Part shown: positions 3,083 to 46,398 of the stretch, in pieces
Layout of the letters: the number at the start of each line of letters is the position of its first letter
How positions within the stretch are numbered: the stretch's first letter is position 1
Source: Octopus vulgaris
Lineage: Eukaryota
DNA: 64,000 bases
Reading direction: 5' to 3'
NCBI GenBank assembly: GCA_951406725.2
Contig: OX597825.1
Span: forward strand, 71,548,001 to 71,612,000
Translations under genes and position numbers: made by a program
The notes under the pieces: generated by a model
The model's input: only the letters and a program-made list of their open reading frames with translations
Told to the model about the DNA's origin: nothing
The model's database searches: none

Positions 3083-4284
3083 CCTATTAGTATACAATAC
3101 GTCTAATAGTATACAGTATAGAATGATGTGCAAGAGAGAACTTCTATGCTAGGCTTCACATATGAGCAAAGGAATGGGAAAAATTTAGATGATATTATTT
3201 CAAGACTAAATGCTCTGTTACCCTTTGTTACTTATATGTTTTTATATGGTGTCTATTGTTCTTTACTGAGACTGAGACAATAAAGGTTGCTGATATCCTA
3301 TATCCTCTTATTGCTAAAATTATATCCATTAAAAAAAATCTATTAGTTTTCTTTGTTGAAACTTGCATAATAACCAATTCAAACATATAAAATATGTAAT
3401 CAATCAAGCAAGGGATCGCAAAAAAAGTGTGCAAATATACATAAGCTTACATGTAATTACACAAACAAGCTCAAATTACAAAATACATGGCTATGTTAAT
3501 GTTATAAATATAATAGGATGAAAGAGATATACATCTAGAAAGGAAATTTCTCTAAGACAACTAAATACACATGTCTGGGTCAATTACAAGTAGGACAGAG
3601 AGATCGGATCAGATAAAATAGATACAAATACAACTTGCATGAGAACTGCATTGAACTAAATGGACACCACAGTTATTAATGAAGGAAGGGTCAGAAATGG
3701 TGATTACTGGTAGTAGCAATTAGTTGAATGTCAGCTGAAGAACTGAGCCACAAATATGACCAATGATTGGGTGTGAGCAACCAAAAGAAACCATATATAT
3801 GAAAGTGTATATGTTTGTGTGTGTGTGTATATACACACACACACTTGGCTCTGGGTTCAATCACACTGTGTGGTACCTTGAGCAAGTGTTTTCTACAATA
3901 GCCTTGGACTGACAAAGCCTTATGAGTGGGTTTGGTATATGGAAACTGAAGGAAGCCCATCTTATATGTGTGTGTATGTATCAGTGTCTGTCCCCTTCCA
4001 CCACTTGGTAACTGGTGATCGTGTGTTAACGTCCCTATAACTTAATGGTTCAGCAAAAGAGACTGATAAAATAAGAACTAGGTTTCAAAAAGGTAAGTCC
4101 TAAGATCGATTTGTTCAACTAAAACAACCCTTCAAAACAGTGCCCCAGCATGGCCACAGTCAAATTACTGAAACAAGTAAAACACACAAACACACACAAA
4201 CATACATCCTTTTCCCAGATATTCTCAAACTTATATAAATGTGAGGTAGCCATTTAGTAAGATACTTATGCTTGTCCTTGGCAT

Positions 4285-4640
4285 AAGGAGAATTCGAGGG
4301 AAGGATGGTAGAATTGGACAAAGGAGAGGAAGGAGTCCAGTTGTTTATGGGAGAGTGAGGTCGTGCTGATACAGTCATCAATATAATGGCCATATAACTT
4401 GGGAGTGGAACTAGTGAATTGTAAGAATATTTGGGCCTCAACATAGCCAATGAACAGGTTCGCATAGTTGGGGCCCATTCTTGTCCCCATGGCCACTCCC
4501 AAGATCTGTTGGTAAAACTCCCCCATGAATGAGAAGCAGTTGAGGATGAGGACAAGTTCAGTTAGATGAAGAAGTGTGGAGGTGTCAGGTTGAGGGTCAG
4601 GCCGATGGTCAAGGAAGTGTTTTAAGTGCAAGAAGTCCCT
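4285..4640 (-). mobile_element. Penelope-like element reverse transcriptase fragment
   Basis: ELVLILNCFSFMGEFYQQILGVAMGTRMGPNYANLF...YGHYIDD...YHPSLEFS: the PLE RT motifs G.AMG..MGP.YANLF and YIDD. Confidence 0.85.
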
Positions 4641-5926
4641 CGTTGTGATCTTCACTTGTTCATTTAATGCCTGTGTTTCTGAGTTTGCATGGGGTAGATG
4701 ACAATGTATTTGGGGCAGGATTTTATGGGTATTGCAGTTTGTGTCACCAATCCATACCGGTTTTTCAGGTAAGATCATCTTTATTCCACAAGACTTTGAA
4801 AGCACAGAGCAACTGATCATAATGCCAACTCAAGCTAAGCCATGGGATAGTAAGATTCACACACACACACACTTTGAAATGTGATCAATGAGTTAACAAT
4901 AAATACCAGGTACTTATTTTATCAGGCCTCAGAATCACAAAATGTAAAGAAGGTTTCAGCAACTGTAGTTAGAACTTAGTCTTGTAACTAAATACTGTAA
5001 GGAATATTTTGTCAAAAGCAAACCATTTTTCATCTTATTCTCTCTGTGAACCTATAGAAATCATATGGCTTTGTGGTTAAGGTGTTAGGTTTAAGAGTGT
5101 AAGGTGGTAAGTTCAATTTCTGGACCAGACCAGGCAGTGTGTTGCTTCCTTCAATAAAAACACTATAGTCCAGTCTATTTCGCTGGCATAGTCCTTTCTC
5201 CCTCCACTTGTCACATACTCCATGTTCTGATGGGTTGAGCCAAAAAGGTATCTAAGTCGGCTCACAACTACATAGGCCCCTATAACAACTAACAAAAGCA
5301 TGGTACATGCTACAAGGCCATACTTGTTTGTGAGTGATAGTATGTTAGAAATCATCATTACACATCTGTATTTTGTGCTGTATGTGTATTACTTGATGGC
5401 ATAAAAGTCACACGTGCATATTAGATGTCCCCTGGATGAACAAAGGTTTGTGAATGGATTTGGTGATCAGAAATAGAAAGAACCTTGTCGTGTGTGTGTG
5501 TGTGTGTGTGAGCGTGTGTGTGTGTGTGTATGTGTCCTTGTCAAAACATTACGTGATGGTTGTAAATGAGCATCATTGTCATACAACCATGCTCATCTTC
5601 TAGGAAAAACATGTCTAATTATGAGAAAATGTTACCTTAATTGGAAACAGGTGATGGCTGGTGACAGGAAGGGAATCTAACTGCAGATGAAGCTGCCTCA
5701 ACCAAATCCACCTGAGCCCCAATGATTACAGATATGTATATTTATACGTATGTGCATATATATATGCACATCCTCTTATCTTTTACTTGTTTCAGTCATT
5801 AGATTGTGGCCATGCTGGGGCACCACCTCAAAGAGTTTTTAGTTGGATGAATCAATCGCAGTACATGTATTCTTTAAGCCTGGTACTTATTCTGTCGGTC
5901 ACTTTTGCTAAACTACTAAGTTACAG

Positions 5927-28782: not shown

Positions 28783-28865
28783 CTGTTGTAGTTCAACTTG
28801 CTTCTTCAATTCATCTAACTCCGATTTCAATTGTTTGTACTCTCGCACAATGTTAGCATTCTCAT
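28783..28865 (-). CDS. Internal exon of coiled-coil protein gene (DENANIVREYKQLKSELDELKKQVELQQ)
   Basis: Acceptor tttttcttctttgcag, donor gttagt; 83 nt, phase 1 to 0, exactly complementing the phase-1 end of exon 32332-32482 (G+AT = Asp). Confidence 0.88.
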
Positions 28866-29707
28866 CTGCAAAGAAGAAAAACTTGTTAAATATTTTACAT
28901 ATGTATACACACACACACGTGTGTGTCTGTCTGCATAATGGACATACTTACACACATCTAATGCCACTTAATTTTAAGATAACCAGTGTCTGAGATAAGC
29001 TGTCTTCACCAAATAGTATGATGAGCAGAGAATCCAAAAATACAATGCTTTATAAGTAACAACACCAACATCACACACAGAGAGCTTACACTTGAGGCAA
29101 AGTTTAAACATTATTTATAACACTAAATGCTCACTTATTTCCAAGTATCACCACCACTTCCATCATCATTACTTTATGGTCATTTTTCCATGGTGGCGTG
29201 GCATGAATTGGTCAGTACAGTCAGAGTTAGTCCTTATTCAGTGTTATTAAATGGGCCAGGGATCACATCTTACTTGTATGTTCAATTTTTGGCATAGCTT
29301 CTATGGCCAGACACCTTTTCTTAACACCAGTCACTTTACAAAAGTGTACTGTGTAAATTATATTATGGCACCAGCACTTGAGAGGTTGCTTTACTATCAG
29401 TAAGACCAAGGAGTCCTTCCTCCCACACATTATCACATTATCACTACTTTATATCGATCACAGGGTGCATTTTACAGAGGCACCTTGTGTGTGTGTATGT
29501 ATACAATCATTTACTTGTTTCAGTCATTGGAGTGCAGCCATGTTGGTGAAATGCCGTGAAGAGTCTTTAGTAAGACAAATGGACCACTGTATTTACTTTC
29601 TCGGCCTGGTACTTATTCTATGGGGATGTAAACAAACAAACAAACACCAGTTGTCAAACAATGGGGGCAAGGACAAACATGCACACATACATATAATATA
29701 TATGTGT

Positions 29708-30580
29708 GTGTGGTCTGATCAATAAGTATTCAGACTGTTGCCATAGAAACGAAGCTAAAACACACAGAGTAAAGCTGCTTGTCACAGATTGACCTTGACC
29801 TCTGCTGTGCACATGCGTTAAATTTTAATGTTCTAGCTCACTTCTGTTATTTACAGTAGTGCTTGGAAGGAAGGTGTGTAGCGTATGATCATTGCATTGA
29901 CCAGGACACAGGAAGTAGAGCAGAGAATCTGCATCAAATTTTGCCAAAAGCTTTGTGATACCTGTTCAGAGGCCTACACAAAGTTTTCAAAAGGTTTTCA
30001 TTGTTCTTAACACAATCAAGGAGATCTTGTGAGTGACTTTTTGGTTAGCTGAAAGCAGTTTTTGCACAAACTTTGCAGACACGCGTTAATACCCAAATCT
30101 TCAGTGATAATGGAGTGAACTGAACCATAACTAATCTGCACATCCTCTGATAACTCATGGATGGTGATTCGACAATTTCCCTTCACAGCTGCATGTACAT
30201 CTGCAATGTTTTTCTCTGTTCTGCAAGTTGCAAGTCTCCCAGAACATTCATTAATATTGACATGTTTTCAGCCATCTAGGAAACATCTGAACCACCCGTA
30301 CACTTGGGTGTGGCTCATACACTCTTCTCCATACACTTTCTGCAACTTTGCATAGGCCTCTGAGCAAGTATTGCCATGACAACTTTCTCTGTCCTGGTCA
30401 ATGCAATGATCACACACTACACACCTTCCTTCCAAGCACTTTTGTAAACAGCAGAAGAGAGAACGTTAAAGCTTAGTGTGCATGCACAGCAGAGTTCAAG
30501 GTCAATCTGTGCCAAGTGGCTTCACTCTGCATGCTTTAGCTTTGCTACTATAGCAACAGTCTGGATACTTATTGATCAGA

Positions 30581-30585
<5 letters not shown>
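29708..30585. mobile_element. Fold-back mariner derivative made of two inverted left ends
   Basis: More than 200 bp of inverted repeat (tctgatcaataagta... / ...tacttattgatcaga). The minus arm encodes the transposase N-terminus (AYAKLQKVYGEECMSHTQVYGWF...RITIHELSEDVQISYGSVHSII). Confidence 0.85.
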
Positions 30586-30629
<44 letters not shown>

Positions 30630-30649
30630 TACAGTATGGTGATGCAAAC

Positions 30650-30682
<33 letters not shown>

Positions 30683-30693
30683 CATATATATGT

Positions 30694-30740
<47 letters not shown>

Positions 30741-31280
30741 GAGTATGGTGATGCAAACAGGAAAATTATAACTCAAAATAAGTATATGTATAGTTTTATT
30801 AATATTTAGTAGAAACAAAAGAGTGACTCAAGTCACTAGTTTCAGCTACTTTTAGTTTTTCTGGATTTGATCCTTTGCTTTGACAGTGTAAACATTGCGT
30901 GCTTTAAAGTCTTTCATGCACTCCCCTTAAAAACTCTATTACAAGAAAGCTGACACACCCAATTACTAAATTTTTAGTTACTAGACTATCTTTACATGGT
31001 CAAAGCAAATGTAATAAAATATAATAAAACCAAAAATAACTTAAAACTAGTGACACATTTACTGACCAAAATGAAACTCTCTCTACCTGACTGCTGCTTC
31101 CTTTTTGTAAAGTGTTCACTTGTTCTACAAGTGTTTTGCAGTGTACTAGGATAATATACTTAATGGCATTAAACTTCTGACTGTCGAAAACAGATATCAA
31201 CTAAACCCTCTGAGAATGTTGGCTATAATAGATTAATCTACAGTAAAAATTGTTTCCTATCTCATTAATGACAAACAAAC

Positions 31281-31284
<4 letters not shown>

Positions 31285-31330
<46 letters not shown>

Positions 31331-31403
31331 TGAGAAAGAGAGAGAGTGAGAAAGAGAGAGAGAGAGAAAGAGAGAGAGTGAGAAAGAGAGAGAGAGAGAG
31401 AGA

Positions 31404-31434
<31 letters not shown>
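31285..31434. repeat. (GA)n compound microsatellite
   Basis: Direct inspection. Confidence 0.95.
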
Positions 31435-31435
<1 letters not shown>

Positions 31436-31532
31436 TTCCCCAGAAACCACATTGAAGCAAAGTGAGCTTCTTAACCACATAGTACATCTGCATAAAAATT
31501 TTTTTACAGCTGGATGTCTTTTCTATTGTTAA

Positions 31533-32196
31533 CCCCTTGACACCGGTATTACCCAAAGCATACAAGACACTGCTCCAGTTTTTTTATCTAATAAGGCCAC
31601 ACAAACACACAAGTGCCAACGAGCTCGCATCTATTTACGTTCACCGTTACAATAACATAGCTTCGTACATTTATGTCTACTGGTTTATGAAAACGAAATA
31701 TGTGAAGCTATTTATCATAATATGATATGCACAAGTTATTCTTGTGCAGCTGTGAAGGGAAATTGTTGAATCACCATCCATGAGTTACCAGAGGATGTGC
31801 AGATTAGTTATGGTTCAGTTCAGTCCATTATCACTGAAGATTTGGGTATGAGATGCATGTCTGCAAAGTTTGTGCAAAAACTGCTTTCAGCTAAAAAATA
31901 GTTTGCGTGTGATACAACTCAAAACACGGTATTATGCATGTAAAGTATCCGCATGTCGATTGGTCGACTGCTAGTCTCATGACTTGAACGTAACCTAAAA
32001 TAGCTCAGATAATGCATGGGACAGTGAGCGTGCACACCTCAAGAGATAAAGTACGCGATAGCGAATGTAAATACACATCAGCCACTAAAAAGTCCGTGAT
32101 AGATGTAGGGCAGCTCTAGATCATATATTTACGTTAATCATGGGTAGGCAAGCAAAAGTGTGATTGCATATTTGCATCAACTGTTTTGTCAGGGGG
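31533..32196. mobile_element. piggyBac-like non-autonomous element carrying a mariner fragment
   Basis: TTAA-ccccttgaca...tgtcaggggg-TTAA; internal 31745-31893 is an inverted copy of 30045-30192. Confidence 0.65.
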
Positions 32197-32331
32197 TTAA
32201 ACATTTAACAATGAAAAAAAGTGTAACTTGTGGTTAGCGACCACACAGAGAATGGGCATCATGATAATCCTTGGTTCTGCTCTGAAAGCTACAGAACAAT
32301 AAAAGCCATAACAAAATTAGACATAGCATAC

Positions 32332-32482
32332 CTTTGAGTTTAACAATCTCCATTTCTTTTTCTTGCTTTAACTGCATATATTCCTGATTTCTGTTCATAT
32401 CTTTTTGTCTGTTGTCTTCAGAGAATTTTTCATATTTTTGTTGTAGTCTATTGTACTCATTCTCTAAATCTTGATGTTGAGT
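32332..32482 (-). CDS. Internal exon of coiled-coil protein gene (TQHQDLENEYNRLQQKYEKFSEDNRQKDMNRNQEYMQLKQEKEMEIVKLK)
   Basis: Acceptor ttttttgccacttcag, donor gtatgc; 151 nt, phase 0 to 1; heptad-like E/K/Q/L-rich sequence; lies within track ORF 32234..32494. Confidence 0.88.
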
Positions 32483-33112
32483 CTGAAGTGGCAAAAAACC
32501 AGATCAATTTATGAGATTATAGTTACGAAAATAGAAATGGCTACATAGTGAAATCTTTTATTTCTTATTCCTTTATGTTTCAGTCATAGGTACATATTAT
32601 GTTAGTTTCTTTTGACAAGCTGCTAAGTTAATGGGATGTAAACAAACCGACATCAGTTGTCAAACAGTGATGTGGGACAAACACAAAGGCATGCACACAC
32701 AAACATAAGGGCTGCCATACAGTTTCCATCTCCCAAATCTACTCATAAAGCATAGATCTAAGAATGTGGTTTATTAAATGTGACTGATGGAGTGTCAACT
32801 GAATGAAATGTCACCTTGCAGTAAATAAATTAACATCTCAGTGCTGTTGCATGAATTACAGAGTTATATTTTGTATGTTTGACACAATCCAGTATTTATA
32901 CTATCAGCCAATATAATTAATTGATCCTTGAAGGCTGAATATCTATGACCTATTGGACTGAGTAAATAGAAATAAATAAATAAGTAATAATAAATTAATA
33001 GCATATGATTGATGACGTGATAGAAATAATGTAACCCAGAACAGACACTAAAAGAAATAACACATTGTACATTTGCTTAATCCCTTGTCCATATTGAGTG
33101 ACATAGTAGAAG

Positions 33113-33350
33113 CAAGGTGGCAAGCTGGCAGAAATGTTAGCACGCCAGGCGAAATACTTAGAGGTATTTCGTCTGTCTTTATGTTCTGAGTTCAAATTCC
33201 GCCGAGGTTGACTTTGCCTTTCATCCTTTCGGGGTTGATAAATTAAATACCAGTTACGCACTGGGGTCAATGTAATCGACTTAATCTCCTTGTCTGTCCT
33301 TGTTTGTTCCCTTTATGTTTAGCCCCTTGTGGGCAATAAAGAAATAAGAA
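33113..33350 (+). mobile_element. SINE family B, full length
   Basis: tRNA-like head aaggtggcaagctggcagaaa...gagttcaaattc, central gactttgcctttcatcctttcgggg, tail aataaagaaataag. Confidence 0.85.
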
Positions 33351-34274
33351 GCATGCTGAGTCCATAACCCAGAGGCTTGTAAATCAAATCTGCAATCTTT
33401 GACGAAATAGATACTATTTTTTGATATTTATACATTGCAGTTAAGTTGTCTAGAAGTATACCAACCATATACATGTATATATACCTACAGGAGAGGTACA
33501 GATTACCTTAGAAATTTGTACAGGGTCAAAGGGTCACCAACAGAATGTGCAGCAAAACCCAAATTGCATAATGGACAAAGATGACAACAGGGGTTTTTGC
33601 TTAGTATATAGGATTATTAATGATGATTATCATCAAAGAATATAATAAGAAGAATCAAGCACAAGGACTGTGAGAATTACATGAAAATAATATATTTTAT
33701 TTTACTTGTTTCAGTCATTAGACTGTGGCCATGCTGGGCACTGCTTTGAAGAATTTTTAGTCGAATGAATTGAGATCAGAACTTATTTTTTAAAGCCTAC
33801 TATTTATGCTATCGGCATCTTATGCGGAACTGCTAAGATACAGGGATGGAAACAAACCAAACACCAGTTGTCAAGCAGTGGTAGGGGACAATTATAGACA
33901 CAAACACAAACAACCCCCAACACACATGAACAATGAGTTTCTTTCAGTTTCTGCTTGCCAAATCCAATTATGAATTTGGTTGGCCTGGGGCTATAGTAGA
34001 AGATGCTTCCCTAAGGTACCACACAGGGGGATCAAACTTGGAACCATGCAGTTAAGAAGCAAACTTCTTACCACACAGCCATGCCAGCACATATATATAT
34101 ATATATATACATATCCAAAACTTTGTAGGAATGACTGAGAAGAATATATAAAACTAAATATAAGAAATAAGAGCAAATAGTTTCCTTTTTAAATAATTTC
34201 ATTGAAAAAAGTTCTAATCATATCATGGACGTGAATGCCATCCACAGCAAACTAATTATCTTAAATTGCATTAA

Positions 34275-34305
<31 letters not shown>

Positions 34306-35240
34306 AAGAAGCAAATTAATTACATTTTTTTGTCAGTTTTGTTGAATTATTTGTATCACCTATGCCTTGCAGATAACATAGAAGATGAGTTACTGTCAAG
34401 GACAACTTAATTATAATGCAAGAAGATAATCCCTGCTCCATGCTAATGAAAACTAAAAAGGAATACCAAATGATAAAATTAAAACACTCAGGCAGATAAT
34501 TAATGAATTTAAATGTGTTTCATCACAAGCAATATTATCTTTTACACTGGTGAGGTTCTGCTGATTACAAAGAAACAACACATGGGACGTTCACTAGAAC
34601 TATTCTACTAAATTAGCCCAAAGGTTTTACATCATCAATAACTGCGATGAACAACTTCAAACATTTAGTTCAGGATTCAGAATGAAGCTTATTTCTTCCT
34701 GTTATTACCAGTGTTCCGTTATGGAACTTTTTGTTTTAGCTTTTGTTTATATAAACAAACCAAGTGTTATTCTGGACTGAGTTTTTCTAGTATAATGAAC
34801 CCCCACCACTTTTTCTGTTCTTTTTTTGAAAAAAAAAAAAAAAAAAGGAAAAAAAAGAAAAAGAAATGGCAAATTCTTTGCAGAATTACAGATCTTGTGG
34901 ACTGCACCATGTCATTTTAGCAATTGCCTATGTTCCATTGTCCTGCTAGATCAAGGCTGATCTGGAACGACAACAACAACAACAACAACAATAGCAACAG
35001 CAGCAGCAGCAACAACACCATCACTGCTACCAACACCACCAACAATGCCACTACTACCACTGCTGCCACCACCACCACCACCAACAAAAGTGTTATGAGA
35101 TATTCTTTTTCTAAAGTGAACTTGAGAGAGAATAAGTCTACCCACTGAAATGTTTCAAGCACCTCTACAGCAATATGACTAAAGTAGCAGAAAAATGGTT
35201 AGGCATATTTCCATATTTGATGGCATAAATAAATGTTGGA

Positions 35241-35400
35241 AGGGCGTTCACGAGATGCACGCCGTCGATACGGCGACGCGGTCCGTCCCGTAAAAAACCC
35301 GAAAGATGGCAAACTGCGGCTAGCACGGTCGCCCGTAGCTCCGCCGCCCTAACGTGCCCGAAATCGAAAGAACGAACTTGAGCGTGCGGTCTCGCCCACG
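35241..35400. other. Compositionally foreign CpG/GC-rich island with predicted secondary structure, identity unknown
   Basis: About 26 CpGs in 160 bp inside a CpG-poor AT-rich intron; ends complementary (gagatgcacgc / gcgtgcggtctc). Confidence 0.8.
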
Positions 35401-35724
35401 TATCAGCTGCACCCCAATTTCAGCAGCACAGCACATATTCAGGAAGAAAAGTTCTTAAAGCATGCAATGTAGGGCCAACTCTGCAAATGGGAACAAAGGT
35501 AATTTCTTTTCTAAAGACATTTTGGTGGGTAAAAAAATGTCATACATGTCACTAAAAATGGTAAATAGAAAATTATGCAACACCATAAAAAATTCCAAGA
35601 AAGAGAAAAACAAAAATAAGCTCTCTGACCACCCATACTAGAACAGGAAAATAGATGTAATACAGAGATATCAATAAAATAAAAAAGTTTTTTTAATACA
35701 AAGAATTAAAAGAAAACTACATAC

Positions 35725-35778
35725 TTGTAACATTTTATGCTTTTGTTCAGCTTCTGAAAATCTTGCAGCTAGTTCTTG
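35725..35778 (-). CDS. Internal exon of coiled-coil protein gene (QELAARFSEAEQKHKMLQ)
   Basis: Acceptor tatgtgtttcag, donor gtatgt; 54 nt, phase 0 to 0; charged helical composition; joins the next exon in frame. Confidence 0.8.
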
Positions 35779-35994
35779 CTGAAACACATAATTTAAAGAG
35801 AAGACAATTCAGAATCCAAGTATCATGAGGTCATGCAGAAATGTACTGTATTCAATTGCATAAAAGATGCACAAGCATATTAGGTACATCCTGATTTCAA
35901 TAGTGTGTATTTAGGAAAAAGAGTTTGTAGTGTAACAAAGCTTATAAAGAGGCCCCTACCTTCACATAGAGGATCTGGTGTAATTTTTTTTGAG

Positions 35995-36495
35995 ATGACT
36001 GGCATTCGTGCTAGTGGAGTACAAAGAGCACCATACAAGTGTGATTGTTGACAGAGTGGCTATTCGAGTATGATCATTACCAGCGTCGCCTTACTGGCAC
36101 TTATGCCTGTGCTAGTAGGGTGCCAAGAGCACCATCCGAGCATGATCGTTGCCAGAACAGCCAACTGGCTTCCGTACCTGTGGCACGTAAAAGGGCACCA
36201 TTCGAGTGTGATCTTTACCAACGTCGCTTCACTGGCACCTGTGCCGGTGGCATGTGTAAAAAGATTCGAGTGAGGTCGTTGCCAGTGCCGCCTGACTGAC
36301 CCCGTGTCGGTGGCATGTAAAAAGCACCCACTACACTCTTGGAGTGGTTGGCGTTAGGAAGGGCATCCAGCTGTAGAAACTCTGGCAGATCAAGATTGGA
36401 ACCTGGTGCAGCCATCTGGCTTGCCAGCCCTCAGTCAAAATCATCCAACCCATGCTAGCATGGAAAGCGGACGTTAAACGATGATGATGATGATG
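35995..36495 (+). mobile_element. RTE-3'UTR-derived retroposon copy
   Basis: Internal ggcacgtaaaaagcacc repeats, family core, (gat)n tail. Confidence 0.8.
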
Positions 36496-36647
36496 TGTTT
36501 TGGATAAAAACTACACCATATATCTCATCAGATGCAGCATGTTCTTCATTTGTTTCATACTGTACTGCACATTGGTCTGTCTTTGGTCAGTTTAACCAAT
36601 CGCTACCATGAACCCAATTTGGGGATCTGGTTGTTTGTTTGTTGTAT

Positions 36648-36846
36648 TTAACCCTTTCGTAACCAACCCGGCTCTGGCTCTGAGCATAAATGTCTCGTTT
36701 TCGTAAGTTGTGAATTGAAATCTTCCAACAAACTTTAACACTAGCTGAATGATAACTAAGTTATTTTAGTAAATTCTTTGTTATATTTAAAATAATTGAA
36801 AGAAACACAGAGCATCTCAAAATAAATACAGTAACAAAAGGGTTAA
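36648..36846. mobile_element. TTAA-flanked piggyBac-like MITE
   Basis: ttaaccctttcgtaac...gtaacaaaagggttaa terminal inverted repeats. Confidence 0.75.
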
Positions 36847-37548
36847 AGTGAATTGCTTATGTGTGTTTAACAATGTTTAGTAGTTAAAGTTTGTCATTAT
36901 TAGCTTTGGTTAATCCTAGAGGGCATTTTATGTCATAAATTGCAATTTTTGAACTACAAAAATATTGACTGTTTTGAAAACGTTTTCTTTTCGCATTTCC
37001 TATTTTTATCATTCATTGATATTTCATACACCTTCACATTTGTTATTATAGTTTCAAAAAAACTAAAATGTTTATTATTGCAATTGAAGAGAAAAGAATA
37101 AATATGCTTTTTTCCACCCCCATTTGGGACTTTTTGAGAAATTTATCATAATTTCCAAAATAGTCCACATATGAAGAAAATTTAAATACTATATATTATT
37201 TTAACTTCTAAGACACCTGGCAAAGCCAAAAAAATATGAATAAAAATTTGGCAGTTAATGGGTTAAGTAGCGTATCAGGATTTCTACTAGAAGAAATAGC
37301 TAGTCTCCCTCATTCAACCAACCCTTCTCCATTTTCTGAAGACAGTGACACTGTAAGTGATCCACTCTCCTTCCATGACCTCTCTCACAACTCAACATAG
37401 AAAAGAGAGAGAGTTTAAAAGATTATAACCATCTTTCTTTTCAAACATGGCAATTTGTCTACTCCTTATTTGACCTTGATCAGTGTCACTCCAAGAGAAA
37501 CACTCACCTATGTGTCCAACTGATTAAAAATTTTATTTATTTATTTAC

Positions 37549-37632
37549 GCAGCTGATGATAGCCCTGCATTTAAATTGATGTAATGATTGCATTGTTCAA
37601 TTAGATGGAGCTGCTTGAAACAGTCGTACTGC
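37549..37632 (+). ncRNA. Putative type I minimal hammerhead ribozyme (Penelope-type)
   Basis: gcag-CTGATGA-(long stem II)-GAAA-C-agtc-GTA-ctgc; stem I gcag/ctgc; stem II catttaaattga/tcaattagatg. Confidence 0.65.
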
Positions 37633-37921
37633 ATCACCTCTTGATATCCTGTTGCTTATTTTGATTTTATTCACCTTACTAGGAGTTGTACGGATAATAC
37701 CTCACAGATTTGGTGCTTCAACTTAAGTACCTAATTCATCTGAACCTCAATTATATATACATATACACACACACATATATACATACATACACTTTTATTT
37801 ATGCATGCTAACCACTGGTAATAAATTATTTTTTATTTATTACCCTCATATATACGATAGTAATATTTATAATTCAGAGGCTATATAAAACACAATTTAA
37901 AATTTATTTATTTACTGCTGG

Positions 37922-37964
<43 letters not shown>

Positions 37965-38406
37965 TTGCGCACTTAGTTTGAATCCATAATGGATAAAGAT
38001 GTAGCTGTCTTGCACACGTGTTTTCGGTACATGTTTGTAACTACATAATTATTCATCGCACTGCAGCACACTGGACCTTATGGAAGTGTATTAAACCTTT
38101 AGCATGTAAATAGGCCATATCCAGCCAAAATATTCAACCAGTTTTATGTTCAGAACAGTCAGATCTGTCCTCTTACACTTGCCCTACAATGTCATTCTAA
38201 AGATAAGCAATCTCAAAGCTATGAAGATAACGGCATGATTGATTCAAACATTGTGACTTAAATAAGTATTATAGTTGACAGAATAACCTGAATGCCAATG
38301 GTTTAAACAAGAAGATTTAAAAAGAAAATGGGATGGTTGCAGCTAAAAATCGTTGATCACTGTGGTGCTCAATTAGGGTTTAACTAGGGCTAAACAATAA
38401 AGATAC

Positions 38407-39278
38407 ATTGGGTTGACAGATAAATTTTTCTGTTTCTTTCCAATTTAATTTTAATTAACGCAAAAAATATTTTTATCAAGTGTTTTATGGCTTTTTCTGT
38501 TGTTCTATTCTTCCTCTACAAAGAACAAAAAAAAAAAAAAACAGTATTTTTAACATGAGCTTCATTTTACTTTAAATCTAGATTCCAAAGCTGCCAAAGT
38601 TGCCAGAGACATTTGTGCTGTATATGGAGAAGGCGCTATTACTGAAAGAATTGCACAGAAATGGTTTTTGTGCTTCAAGGATGATGAAATTCAACCTCAC
38701 AGAACCTCTCTGTTCCAGCCATGCTGTTCAGTTCAATGAGGATTGATTGAAAAAGCTCATCAAAGATGATCTGTGCCTATCCACGAGGGAACTGACCTAG
38801 TAAAAGAGATGCTCTCCTTTTACGATTGCCCATCACCTTCATTCAATGGGAAAAGTCCAAAACCCCAACACAGGGACAATGTGATTCTTCATCAAAATGA
38901 CATACCTTCACATTGCTAATTTGACCAAAAATGCTATTCAAAAGCTTGACTGGAAAGTTCTACCATGCCTAGCATATTCTCCTGATATAGCACTCTCAGA
39001 TCACCATTTTTTCAGTTGTTCTCCAACAGTCTGTGAGGCATTTCATTCAACAACACAGAGCTGAGATCATAAGTCAATGAATTCTTTTGAATTTTTTGAG
39101 TCCTGGTGATTTTGAAACCTGGTGATTTCAACCATCAAGGCAATGACAAACTAGTGGAATGTTGACAAGAAGTTGCAAACAATGAAGAGTATATTACTGG
39201 CTGACTTGTTAAAATTGTTGATGGAAAATGAAGATTAAAAATAAATGGAAGAAAATGAGTTTATCCAAAAATCTGATA
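38407..39278 (+). mobile_element. Decayed, internally deleted mariner transposon
   Basis: SKAAKVARDICAVYGEGAITERIAQKWF (HTH) and LDWKVLPCLAYSPDIALSD (YSPDLAPSD motif). Confidence 0.88.
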
Positions 39279-39340
39279 AAAGTAATTGAAACACAAATAT
39301 CTAAAACAAAAATATTTAAAGTAATAAAAATTTAACTTAC

Positions 39341-39390
39341 TCTGTCTTTGTAATATTTTTCTTTCATATTTGATTTTTCTAAGTTTATTT
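39341..39390 (-). CDS. Internal exon of unidentified coiled-coil protein gene (xINLEKSNMKEKYYKDR)
   Basis: Minus strand: strong acceptor tttttttcttttgcag and donor gtaagt; 50 nt, phase 1 to 0, open and in frame with exon 35725-35778. Confidence 0.7.
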
Positions 39391-39442
39391 CTGCAAAAGA
39401 AAAAAATTATGGTCATTACATATAATACCATAGAGAATAATG

Positions 39443-40517: not shown

Positions 40518-41588
40518 AGGCGCAGGAGTGGCTGTGTGGTAAGTAGCTTGCTTACCAACCACATGGTTCCGGGTTCAGTCCCACTGCGTGGCGCCTTGGG
40601 CAAGTGTCTTCTACTATAGCCTCGGGCTGACCAAAGCCTTGTGAGTGGATTTGGTAGACAGAAACTGAAAGAAGCCTGTCGTATATCGTCGTCGTCGTCG
40701 TCGTCATTTAACGTCCGTTCTCCATGCTAGCATGGGTTGGACGGTTCAACCGGGGTTCTGGGAAGCCAGAAGGCTGCACCAGGCTCCAGTCTAAATTTGG
40801 CAATGTTTCTACAGCTGGATGCCCTTCCTAACGCCAACCACTCCGTGAGTGTAGTGGGTGCTTTTTACGTGCCACCTGCACAGGTGCCAGGCGGGGCTAG
40901 CAACGGCCACGGTCAGATTGGTGTATTTTTATGTGCCACCGGCACGGAAGCCAGTCGAGGCGGTGCTGGCATCGGCCACGAGTCGGATAGTGCTTTTTAC
41001 GTACCACCAGACCAGGGATCCTGGCTGGTTCAATTCGATTTCGATTTCGATTTCGCTTGCCCCAACATGTCTTCACAAGCAAAGGGGGTTGGCAAGGGTG
41101 CCTGTCGTACGGTCGCATTGGAGTATTTTACGTGCCACGGCCACGAGTCGGATAGTGCTTTTTACGTACCATCAGACCAGGGATCCTGGCTGGTTCAATT
41201 CGATTTCGATTTCGATTTCGCTTGCCCCAACATGTCTTCACAAGCAAAGGGGTTGGCATGGGTGCCTGTCGTACGGTCGCATTGGAGTATTTTACGTGCC
41301 ACGGCCACGAGTCGGATAGTGCTTTTTACATACCACCAGGCCAGGGATCCTGGCTGGTTGTGTGAGTATATGTTTGTGTGTCAGTGTTTGTCACCCCAAC
41401 ATCGCTTGACAACTGATGCTGGTGTGTTTACATCCCTGTAACTTAGCGGTTCGGCAAAGAGACCGATAGACTAAGTACTAGGCTTACAAAGAATAAGTCC
41501 TGGGGTCAATTTGCTCGACTAAAGGCGGTGCTCCAGCATGGCCACAGTCAAAGGACTGAAACAAGTAAAAGACTAAAGAGTAAGAGTA
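40518..41588 (+). mobile_element. SINE family A with a nested opposite-strand RTE-3'UTR element (40687-41358)
   Basis: Head and core at 40518-40685, tail at 41360-41588. The nested element sits at the internal microsatellite and carries a ~165-bp internal tandem duplication. Confidence 0.85.
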
Positions 41589-43195: not shown

Positions 43196-43423
43196 CATAT
43201 ATATATATATATATCATCATCATCATTTAACGTCTGCTTTCCATGCTAGCATGAGTTGGACAATTTGACTGTGGACTGGTGAACCAGATGGCTGCCCCAG
43301 GCTCCAGTCTGATCTGACAGAGTTTCTACAGCTGGATGCCCTTCGTTACACCAACAGATGCCCTTCCTAACATATATATATATATATATAATCAAAAATA
43401 AGCAACAAGAATGACTCCGGTAA

Positions 43424-43511
43424 TTTGGTACAATTGTTTCACACTACAACATTTTATTAAAAGTTGTAATTATTACAGCAGATTTAAGATGCTGAGTGCT
43501 CTTCGGCCAAA
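43424..43511 (-). ncRNA. Putative type I minimal hammerhead ribozyme (Penelope-type), U4C core variant
   Basis: Minus strand: tttgg-CCGAAGA-gcactcagcatctta...taaaatgttgtagtgt-GAAA-C-aatt-GTA-ccaaa; palindromic stem III region caattg; inside a short (TA)n-flanked element. Confidence 0.65.
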
Positions 43512-43547
43512 AATATAGGTTTTCCAATAATACAAAAGCTTTTAAAT

Positions 43548-43594
<47 letters not shown>

Positions 43595-45279: not shown

Positions 45280-45437
45280 AACAGTGTTCATCGGTATTGG
45301 TGGTGTTCATCGGTATTGGTGGTGTTCATCGGTATTGGTGGTGTTCATCGGTATTGGTGGTGTTCATCGGTATTGGTGGTGTTCATCGGTATTGGTGGTG
45401 TTCATCGGTATTGGTGGTGTTCATCGGTATTGGTGGT
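45280..45437. repeat. 19-bp VNTR
   Basis: Unit ggtattggtggtgttcatc, ~8 copies. Confidence 0.95.
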
Positions 45438-45457
45438 GGGGGTGGGGGGCGGGGCGC

Positions 45458-46398
45458 ACCGCCAATGGCTGAAAGATGGCTGAAAGATGGGAAGAGATGG
45501 GAAGAGATGGGATTACGGCTTGAGGTAGCCTCGCCTAAGGTTAAATTTTGTAGAGAGAGAGATAGAAAGATAAATCAAGTTATGGCGAAGGCTTGAAAGT
45601 AGCCTTAAAAGGTTAAATTTTCGTAACAATGTATGAATAAACGTAGTAACAACGAATGGAAATATTAAGATAAATTTTTAAAGAACTTGCTGCGGACATC
45701 GATCGGGAGTTGAAATTTAAGAAGTAAGTTAGTTGAATTGGGAATTTAAATTGTAGAATCGTAATGGTAAGAGGAGGAAAAAAGACCGCCAATGGCTGAA
45801 AGATGGCTGAAAGATGGCTGAAAGATGGGAAGAGATGGGAAGAGATGGGATTACGGCTTGAGGTAGCCTCGCCTAAGGTTAAATTTTGTAGAGAGAGAGA
45901 TAGAAAGATAAATCAAGTTATGGCGAAGGCTTGAAAGTAGCCTTAAAAGGTTAAATTTTCGTAACAATGTATGAATAAACGTAGTAACAACGAATGGAAA
46001 TATTAAGATAAATTTTTAAAGAACTTGCTGCGGACATCGATCGGGAGTTGAAATTTAAGAAGTAAGTTAGTTGAATTGGGAATTTAAATTGTAGAATCGT
46101 AATGGTAAGAGGAGGAAAAAAGACCGCCAATGGCTGAAAGATGGCTGAAAGATGGCTGAAAGATGGGAAGAGATGGGAAGAGATGGGATTACGGCTTGAG
46201 GTAGCCTCGCCTAAGGTTAAATTTTGTAGAGAGAGAGATAGAAAGATAAATCAAGTTATGGCGAAGGCTTGAAAGTAGCCTTAAAAGGTTAAATTTTCGT
46301 AACAATGTATGAATAAACGTAGTAACAACGAATGGAAATATTAAGATAAATTTTTAAAGAACTTGCTGCGGACATCGATCGGGAGTTGAAATTTAAGA
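45458..46398. repeat. Tandem repeat of 327/338-bp unit, ~2.8 near-identical copies
   Basis: Units start accgccaatggctgaaag at 45458, 45785 and 46123; they differ by one 11-bp subunit. Confidence 0.95.

Follow-up and report, generated by a model that had tools for sequence, protein, structure and literature searches.

A hammerhead motif in an intron of Octopus vulgaris as the probable truncated 3' end of a Hydra-clade Penelope-like retrotransposon

The element at 43391..43550 of the window (the whole 64-kb stretch of Octopus vulgaris DNA analysed here) is very probably a 160-bp remnant of the 3' end of a Hydra-clade Penelope-like retrotransposon, truncated on its 5' side. It sits within a (TA)n repeat of a host intron, was likely inserted by target-primed reverse transcription and is probably inert. 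Its minus strand reads, from 43,511 to 43,424, UUUGG CCGAAGA GCACU...AGUGU GAAA CAAUUG UA CCAAA, which is a type I hammerhead; positions are numbered according to standard usage for this ribozyme. Based on hammerhead geometry, the cut is predicted to fall after GUA, with 122 nt of the piece upstream and about 38 nt downstream of it. The parts of the element are the following:

43372..43390, unstranded: (TA)n target repeat at the 3' junction of the element
43391..43550, minus strand: very probable 5'-truncated pseudo-LTR-region 3' end of a Hydra-clade Penelope-like element, with the proximal ("short") terminus
43391..43406, minus strand: GTTGCTTATTTTTGAT motif, kept across sister families, directly before the proximal 3' terminus
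43424..43428, minus strand: 3' strand of stem I, CCAAA (descriptor and alignment)
43428..43429, minus strand: predicted self-cleavage site after GUA, A17 being 43,429 (hammerhead geometry)
43430..43440, minus strand: GAAA core box and palindromic stem III ACAAUUGU, 2 bp plus a tetraloop as a monomer and 8 bp as a dimer
43441..43499, minus strand: stem II, GCACU/AGUGU, with a long irregular closing hairpin of ~50 nt (alignment, covariation)
43500..43506, minus strand: core box CUGANGA, here CCGAAGA, with U4C at 43,505
43507..43511, minus strand: 5' strand of stem I, UUUGG (descriptor and alignment)
43551..43586, unstranded: (TA)n repeat at the 5' junction of the element

A relaxed type I descriptor matched only this motif and a second one at 37.5 kb within the window, and nothing in 60 dinucleotide shuffles. 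An Rfam scan of the window motifs returned no hammerhead family at E<=1, and the minimum-free-energy folding of the 96-nt motif was not better than that of shuffles (z = -0.73); the case for the structure therefore rests on comparison, not on energy. We aligned 20 hand-picked motifs from several families and wrote the hammerhead structure by hand. Double-sided changes occur in 12 of the 26 modelled pairs, and 86.5% of the cells pair across these 20 sequences. The covariation score of 0.367 was equalled by none of 500 shuffles (a control inflated by relatedness), and slid controls reached at most 0.127. RNAalifold independently recovered stems I and II as well as an inner hairpin; stem III was not recovered. 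The blank Rfam scan and the folding score would fit a chance match to a loose descriptor, a reading with practically no prospect of being right given the empty shuffles, a conserved core with stems covarying across families, and a position and form as in published Hydra-clade hammerheads; covariation and family context refute it. The hammerhead of the initial annotation is thus real, as is its palindromic stem III, ACAAUUGU. For stem III, the computed pairing probability is about 0.04 in a monomer, against full pairing in the dimer, and no same-strand hammerhead partner lies within the 64-kb window. At position 11.1 (43,441) the window copy has U versus C in 26 of the 29 nearest copies, a CpG-type change.

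The second motif belongs to the following feature:

37510..37752, plus strand: sister-family end with intact core (CUGAUGA at 37,553; A17 at 37,628) and a ~95-nt tail that reaches the distal terminus; it is antisense within a host intron

Stems I and II had been described as differing entirely between the two motifs, but these align end to end, with 52 of 86 columns identical and with compensatory changes. The two window hammerheads are homologues from sister families, and the proposal of a diversified set of related families holds. The sequence said to follow both of them was also found: GTTGCTTATTTT(T)GAT begins 22 nt past the predicted cut, at 43,406, and recurs downstream of the 37.5-kb motif at 37,651. 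We rejected the idea that the motifs are two arms of one insertion, since they are of different families, 5.7 kb apart and convergent.

The 160-bp piece belongs to a high-copy repeat, with 1,791 first-look candidates in the 2.8-Gb genome, the 40 that were scored being 93-98% identical to it apart from the self-match; the 37.5-kb motif belongs to another family, with 3,317 candidates. Combining half of the ribozyme with the downstream motif (GAAAC-N4-GTA-N16-24-TGTTGCTT) yielded 11,283 genome matches versus 15 for the reversed control, and CTGANGA stands upstream in 21 of the first 30 inspected matches.

Other copies run past both ends of the 160-bp piece, and the longer ones are coding. In L061 and L062, which match it at 95-96% identity, an endonuclease frame and a reverse transcriptase (RT) frame with LYRDD, both broken, lie upstream. 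A more distant copy (L104, 89%) is a full pLTR-ORF-pLTR unit that is flanked by TA repeats on either side; its direct-repeat hammerheads are separated by 3,465 nt and its ORF is broken. The link to Penelope-like pseudo-LTRs drawn in the initial annotation is borne out. In a sister family (L090-L092, 78%) we found open RT-endonuclease (RT-EN) frames of ~950 aa with an Asn-rich insert, and near-identical hammerheads. The arms of one of its members (L090:1889-4750, minus strand) are 99.6-99.9% identical, which suggests, on sequence grounds, that this family was recently active. The family of the 37.5-kb motif has RT and EN upstream in L226, one of nine extended loci, and EN in L041. The fetched copies of the window's own family included none with an intact ORF, and its autonomous source is therefore inferred from broken full-length copies and the intact sister family. 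The endonuclease piece matches Pfam GIY-YIG at E=2.9e-4 with 21.5 bits, just under the cut-off of 22.6; at least 150 relatives of it were scored genome-wide. For the RT, Pfam gave no family at E<=0.1, either for the whole 954-aa ORF or for the RT piece, and a PDB sequence search of the RT region returned no RT and a single chance match to angiogenin. The Atlas places this region beside animal clusters partly annotated as RVT_1 (17% of members, top match). The assignment as RT is consequently a putative one, based on motifs and on Atlas matches to clusters in which RVT_1 is a minority annotation.

The Hydra clade as described in PMC8557442 is characterized by RWK, DKT in place of DKG, a CxCX5C linker, and CxxC and CxH around a conserved E and N, with no CCHH, with canonical hammerheads and with insertion into (TA)n. 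Hydra-1_Obim, an Octopus bimaculoides element that has a canonical hammerhead and prefers (TA)n, is listed in the supplement of that paper. In our loci, RT is followed by a GIY-YIG endonuclease at the C terminus of a single ORF upstream of the hammerhead (open in L090-L092; broken in L061, L062 and L104). IRWK and ADKT are present in L090-L092 and ADKT in L096 and L104, with RWI replacing RWK in the window's own family. The endonuclease carries CNCRIRSKC (the CxCX5C linker), CQLC (CxxC) and CIH (CxH), with no CCHH, as matched by eye to the motifs given in PMC8557442. The Hydra-1_Obim protein of the supplement has the same motifs as the octopus ORFs, and GLYRDDAL. The octopus families hence resemble the clade, as far as PMC8557442 describes it, in their single RT-EN ORF with RWK, DKT, GLYRDD, CxCX5C, CxxC and CxH, in a type I hammerhead that lies in sense close to the 3' end and whose stem II has G-C or U-U at its base, in a short, often palindromic stem III, and in (TA)n insertion, 5' truncation and inverted 5' copies. 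They differ from Hydra-1_Obim in hammerhead sequence (by eye), and from the published Hydra hammerheads in the ~50-nt extended hairpin of stem II, versus loops of 3-10 nt (PMC8557442). The units are also longer, about 3.5 kb (L104) and about 4.7 kb (L090) versus generally <3 kb in the description of the Hydra elements (PMC8557442), owing to Asn-rich inserts and long 3' UTRs. Literature searches, mostly of open-access papers, returned no description of these particular octopus families, and the main text of PMC13282606 nowhere mentions hammerhead, ribozyme or Hydra. We thus assign the window element to the Hydra clade of Penelope-like elements by motifs and a visual comparison with Hydra-1_Obim rather than by phylogeny, and consider it a new family of this known clade. 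Endonuclease frames of more distant Hydra-like families (L062:4254-4994 and L101:2018-4333) are inserted near window-family copies.

We surveyed the ends of 97 copies at 90 loci; a 23-nt pattern located downstream of the core has 887 exact matches, and the loci were chosen among the first 100 of these. The 5' ends of the copies vary widely, from 2 to >1,400 nt, and share no fixed boundary, and the median 5' extent of 122 nt equals that of the window copy. The upstream extent is at most 500 nt in 92/97 copies and reaches 1 kb in 3/97, figures obtained by a banded extension that under-measures large indels or a differing 3' UTR. Two candidate boundaries were rejected. A fixed end at -421 belongs to a subfamily with a longer, different 3' UTR, an extended member of which (L234) has RT and EN upstream; a pile-up at the cut site was unsupported (5/97 within 10 nt, none at position 0).

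The initial annotation had seen a tiny element here, one of a family of short, non-autonomous elements that would be retrozyme-like or solo pseudo-LTRs. On such a reading, the family would amplify as its own small, possibly circular RNA by means of Penelope enzymes. The abundance of short copies fits this, as does a proposal that non-LTR retrozymes derive from PLE pseudo-LTRs (put forward in bioRxiv 10.64898/2026.07.22.740005). Metazoan non-LTR retrozymes also share with the window family, in the descriptions of PMC7229834 and bioRxiv 10.64898/2026.07.22.740005, a type I hammerhead with a weak palindromic helix III and a probable dependence on PLE enzymes. As characterized in PMC7229834, however, they are head-to-tail tandem arrays of 150-450-bp non-coding units, each with a hammerhead, whereas 120 loci of the window family of about 2.5-3.2 kb contained no pair of same-strand hammerhead halves, and its longer copies are coding. 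The scatter of the 5' ends, the -421 cluster with its coding member, and the relatives of both window motifs that reach RT and GIY-YIG (with one of nine extended loci, L226, and the EN of L041 for the 37.5-kb family) further argue against it, so that we consider a self-amplifying short family extremely unlikely. The 160-bp piece, having no fixed 5' boundary, is instead read as a truncated part of a longer element. Given that 92/97 copies extend at most 500 nt upstream, some of them may nevertheless derive from trans-mobilised short RNAs.

The 3' ends of the same 97 copies are organized differently from the 5' ends, as they fall at two discrete termini past the cut: from +28 to +51 in 57 copies, from +117 to +136 in 37, and in between in the remaining 3. 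Both termini recur in the sister families. The GTTGCTTATTTTTGAT motif sits just before the proximal terminus, the copies ending at about +37 or +130 from the cut, and it is likely close to a start site of reverse transcription. The 3' end is followed by TA repeats in 80/97 copies versus 7.5% of background positions, and (TA)n flanks the window copy on both sides, in agreement with the TA-repeat targeting suggested initially. At 57 proximal junctions, a variable letter separates the TTTTGA end from the TA repeat, T being commonest and G accounting for about a fifth; this letter may be a non-templated base or target-derived sequence. The ~95-nt tail of the longer ends (e.g., L074:2859-2997) has two predicted hairpins, TGG-N6-CCA and GGTGC...GTACC, conserved across families. 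Double-sided changes were seen in 2 of 8 tail pairs, which supports these hairpins weakly.

Short and read-through ends are about equally frequent genome-wide (1,823 versus 1,927 exact matches), and an inverted copy adjoins the 5' side in 52/97 copies. All 22 head-to-head pairs detected on contig C1 consist of one short and one tailed end (p=2.4e-7 versus independence, from the first 100 listed places of each). In the fetched loci (L002-L226, partly overlapping the C1 set), a script scored 43 of 48 pairs as mixed and the other 5 as tail-tail, with no short-short pair among them; a further pair was uncallable. Upon rereading, the 5 tail-tail calls resolved into 3 mixed pairs, one internal repeat of a full element and one true tail-tail pair.

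The two-terminus pattern is the "tail" pattern known from Penelope elements. A one-sided tail of 30-40 bp has already been described (Fig. 2 legend of PMC8557442; Adineta Pen2a in PMC3846280), and the account of Poseidon_Ac by Frangieh et al. (2024, PMC11167929) traces the tail to a pair of internal positions at which RT starts on uncleaved RNA. In the descriptions given in these three papers, the systems share with octopus two discrete 3' termini past an uncut hammerhead, a tail on one end of inverted insertions, and AT-rich targets. The octopus tail is longer (about 90-120 nt versus 30-40 nt), lies upstream of the ORF start and not inside the ORF, and, unlike the tails as published there, both octopus termini end at a TATA-like sequence matching the target. 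Moreover, the pairing of short and tailed ends is near-strict in octopus, while the in vitro data described in PMC11167929 show no strand difference in start site. Compared with described Penelope tails, the only fresh points are thus the tail length of about 90-120 nt and the strictness of the pairing.

These observations would be compatible with an insertion in which the GIY-YIG endonuclease of the element nicks TA repeats and RT initiates within the RNA at either of two sites, each of which likely serves one target strand. In the window copy, internal priming would have occurred at the proximal site and copying of the cDNA would have stopped after about 160 nt. Because the template includes the cut site, it would have been either uncleaved RNA or a re-ligated circle. 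Tandem transcripts of the parent element are likely processed by its hammerhead, which would act in dimeric form or with the help of protein. A more specific version of this scheme, twin priming, would have a dimeric RT-endonuclease start one cDNA right after the GTTGCT motif and a second one about 95 nt downstream of it on a single RNA molecule, either uncut or re-ligated into a circle, with the conserved tail hairpins as guides; we put it forward tentatively, with somewhat less than even confidence. If it were true, the head-to-head pairs of one short and one tailed end would be a direct record of the Penelope insertion mechanism, and the intact young sister family would offer material to test it in vitro.

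The host intron was delimited with contigs of four runs taken as RNA, in which the same three CT..AC joints link minus-strand exons of the host gene:

39,341-39,391, minus strand: host gene exon, downstream of a ~71-kb intron (spliced contigs)
35,725-35,778; 32,332-32,482; 28,783-28,865, minus strand: further host exons (spliced contigs)
G000:C12:71,658,801, outside the window, minus strand: end of the upstream host exon (the loose end of a contig maps uniquely, with a GT donor)

The spliced contigs and the unique mapping of the upstream exon place the 43.4-kb copy in sense within the ~71-kb intron, on the host-gene strand as first annotated; the 37.5-kb copy is antisense in the next intron. 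The spliced gene, from 28,783-39,391 (minus strand) to G000:C12:71,658,801, encodes a coiled-coil protein, for which the Atlas gives generic coiled-coil clusters of low recognition value. The sister element is patchily covered in the four runs taken as RNA, whose data, being contigs, carry no information on strand, ends, level or circles. Those contigs that have U4 at 43,505 probably stem from other copies.

The U4C change itself is present in the window copy, which reads CCGAAGA at 43500..43506 on the minus strand. All 29 nearest copies have U4, the change being private to the window copy among these; over 498 genomic matches, U4 is found in 494 and C4 in 4, spread over three sequence variants. 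Among the 60 of the 97 surveyed copies that span the ribozyme, the core is intact in 53 and changed in some way in 7. Core cells differ in 9/660 cases (1.4%) versus 99/4,157 (2.4%) in other columns when columns with >5 differences are dropped, or 5.4% with them. With this lower rate in the core, and with 7/60 copies hit, the core stays constant between subfamilies and decays in single copies.

It had been suggested that U4C would be consistent with a loss of self-cleavage if the copy lies inside the pre-mRNA, and selection could have favoured it if a sense hammerhead would cut the host pre-mRNA. The copy lies in sense in an intron of an expressed gene, the antisense 37.5-kb copy has an intact core, and U4C considerably lowers activity in vitro, according to the data described in PMC3088659. 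Still, this is one observation, C4 recurs in 4/498 matches over three sequence variants, and private changes are rarer in the core than elsewhere, with 7/60 copies hit. The low monomer pairing probability of stem III and the lack of a same-strand partner in the window also speak against it. In the accounts of PMC4209133 and PMC11167929, respectively, metazoan PLE hammerheads cleave poorly alone or need protein, the published examples cleaving weakly, in dimeric form or with protein. U4C also keeps enough activity for viroid infectivity in the work described in PMC3088659. Monomer activity is nevertheless conceivable, as an axolotl hammerhead with a 2-bp stem III is described to reach 22% monomer cleavage in one hour (PMC7229834). 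We found no support for more than a chance coincidence of U4C with the intronic sense position, and selection is very unlikely to account for it. U4C is likely a random post-insertion mutation, neutral decay being the simplest reading in view of the 4/498 matches with U4C and the 7/60 copies with some core change.

The window copy itself matters little, as a single fossil end out of thousands. By contrast, the several sister families, with their >11,000 hammerhead-bearing ends, offer natural covariation for the unusually long stem II and for the tail, and with these copies it could be examined across the genome whether introns are purged of sense-strand ribozymes. Together with an intact sister ORF, the near-strict pairing of short and tailed ends makes it testable how PLEs prime both strands and what role the hammerhead plays.

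Other repeats were observed in the window. A perfect (100%) 338-bp tandem repeat of 2.8 copies at 45,465-46,398, adjoining a G-rich 19-bp array at 45,284-45,438, is either a recent duplication or an assembly feature. A 165-bp tandem repeat (2.4 copies, 97%) at 40,973-41,359 lies within a very common short interspersed repeat. Finally, 4,266-4,829 (minus strand) carries a fragment of another RT-like frame, GVAMGTRMGP...YIDD, which by its motifs we take to resemble a different Penelope-type element.
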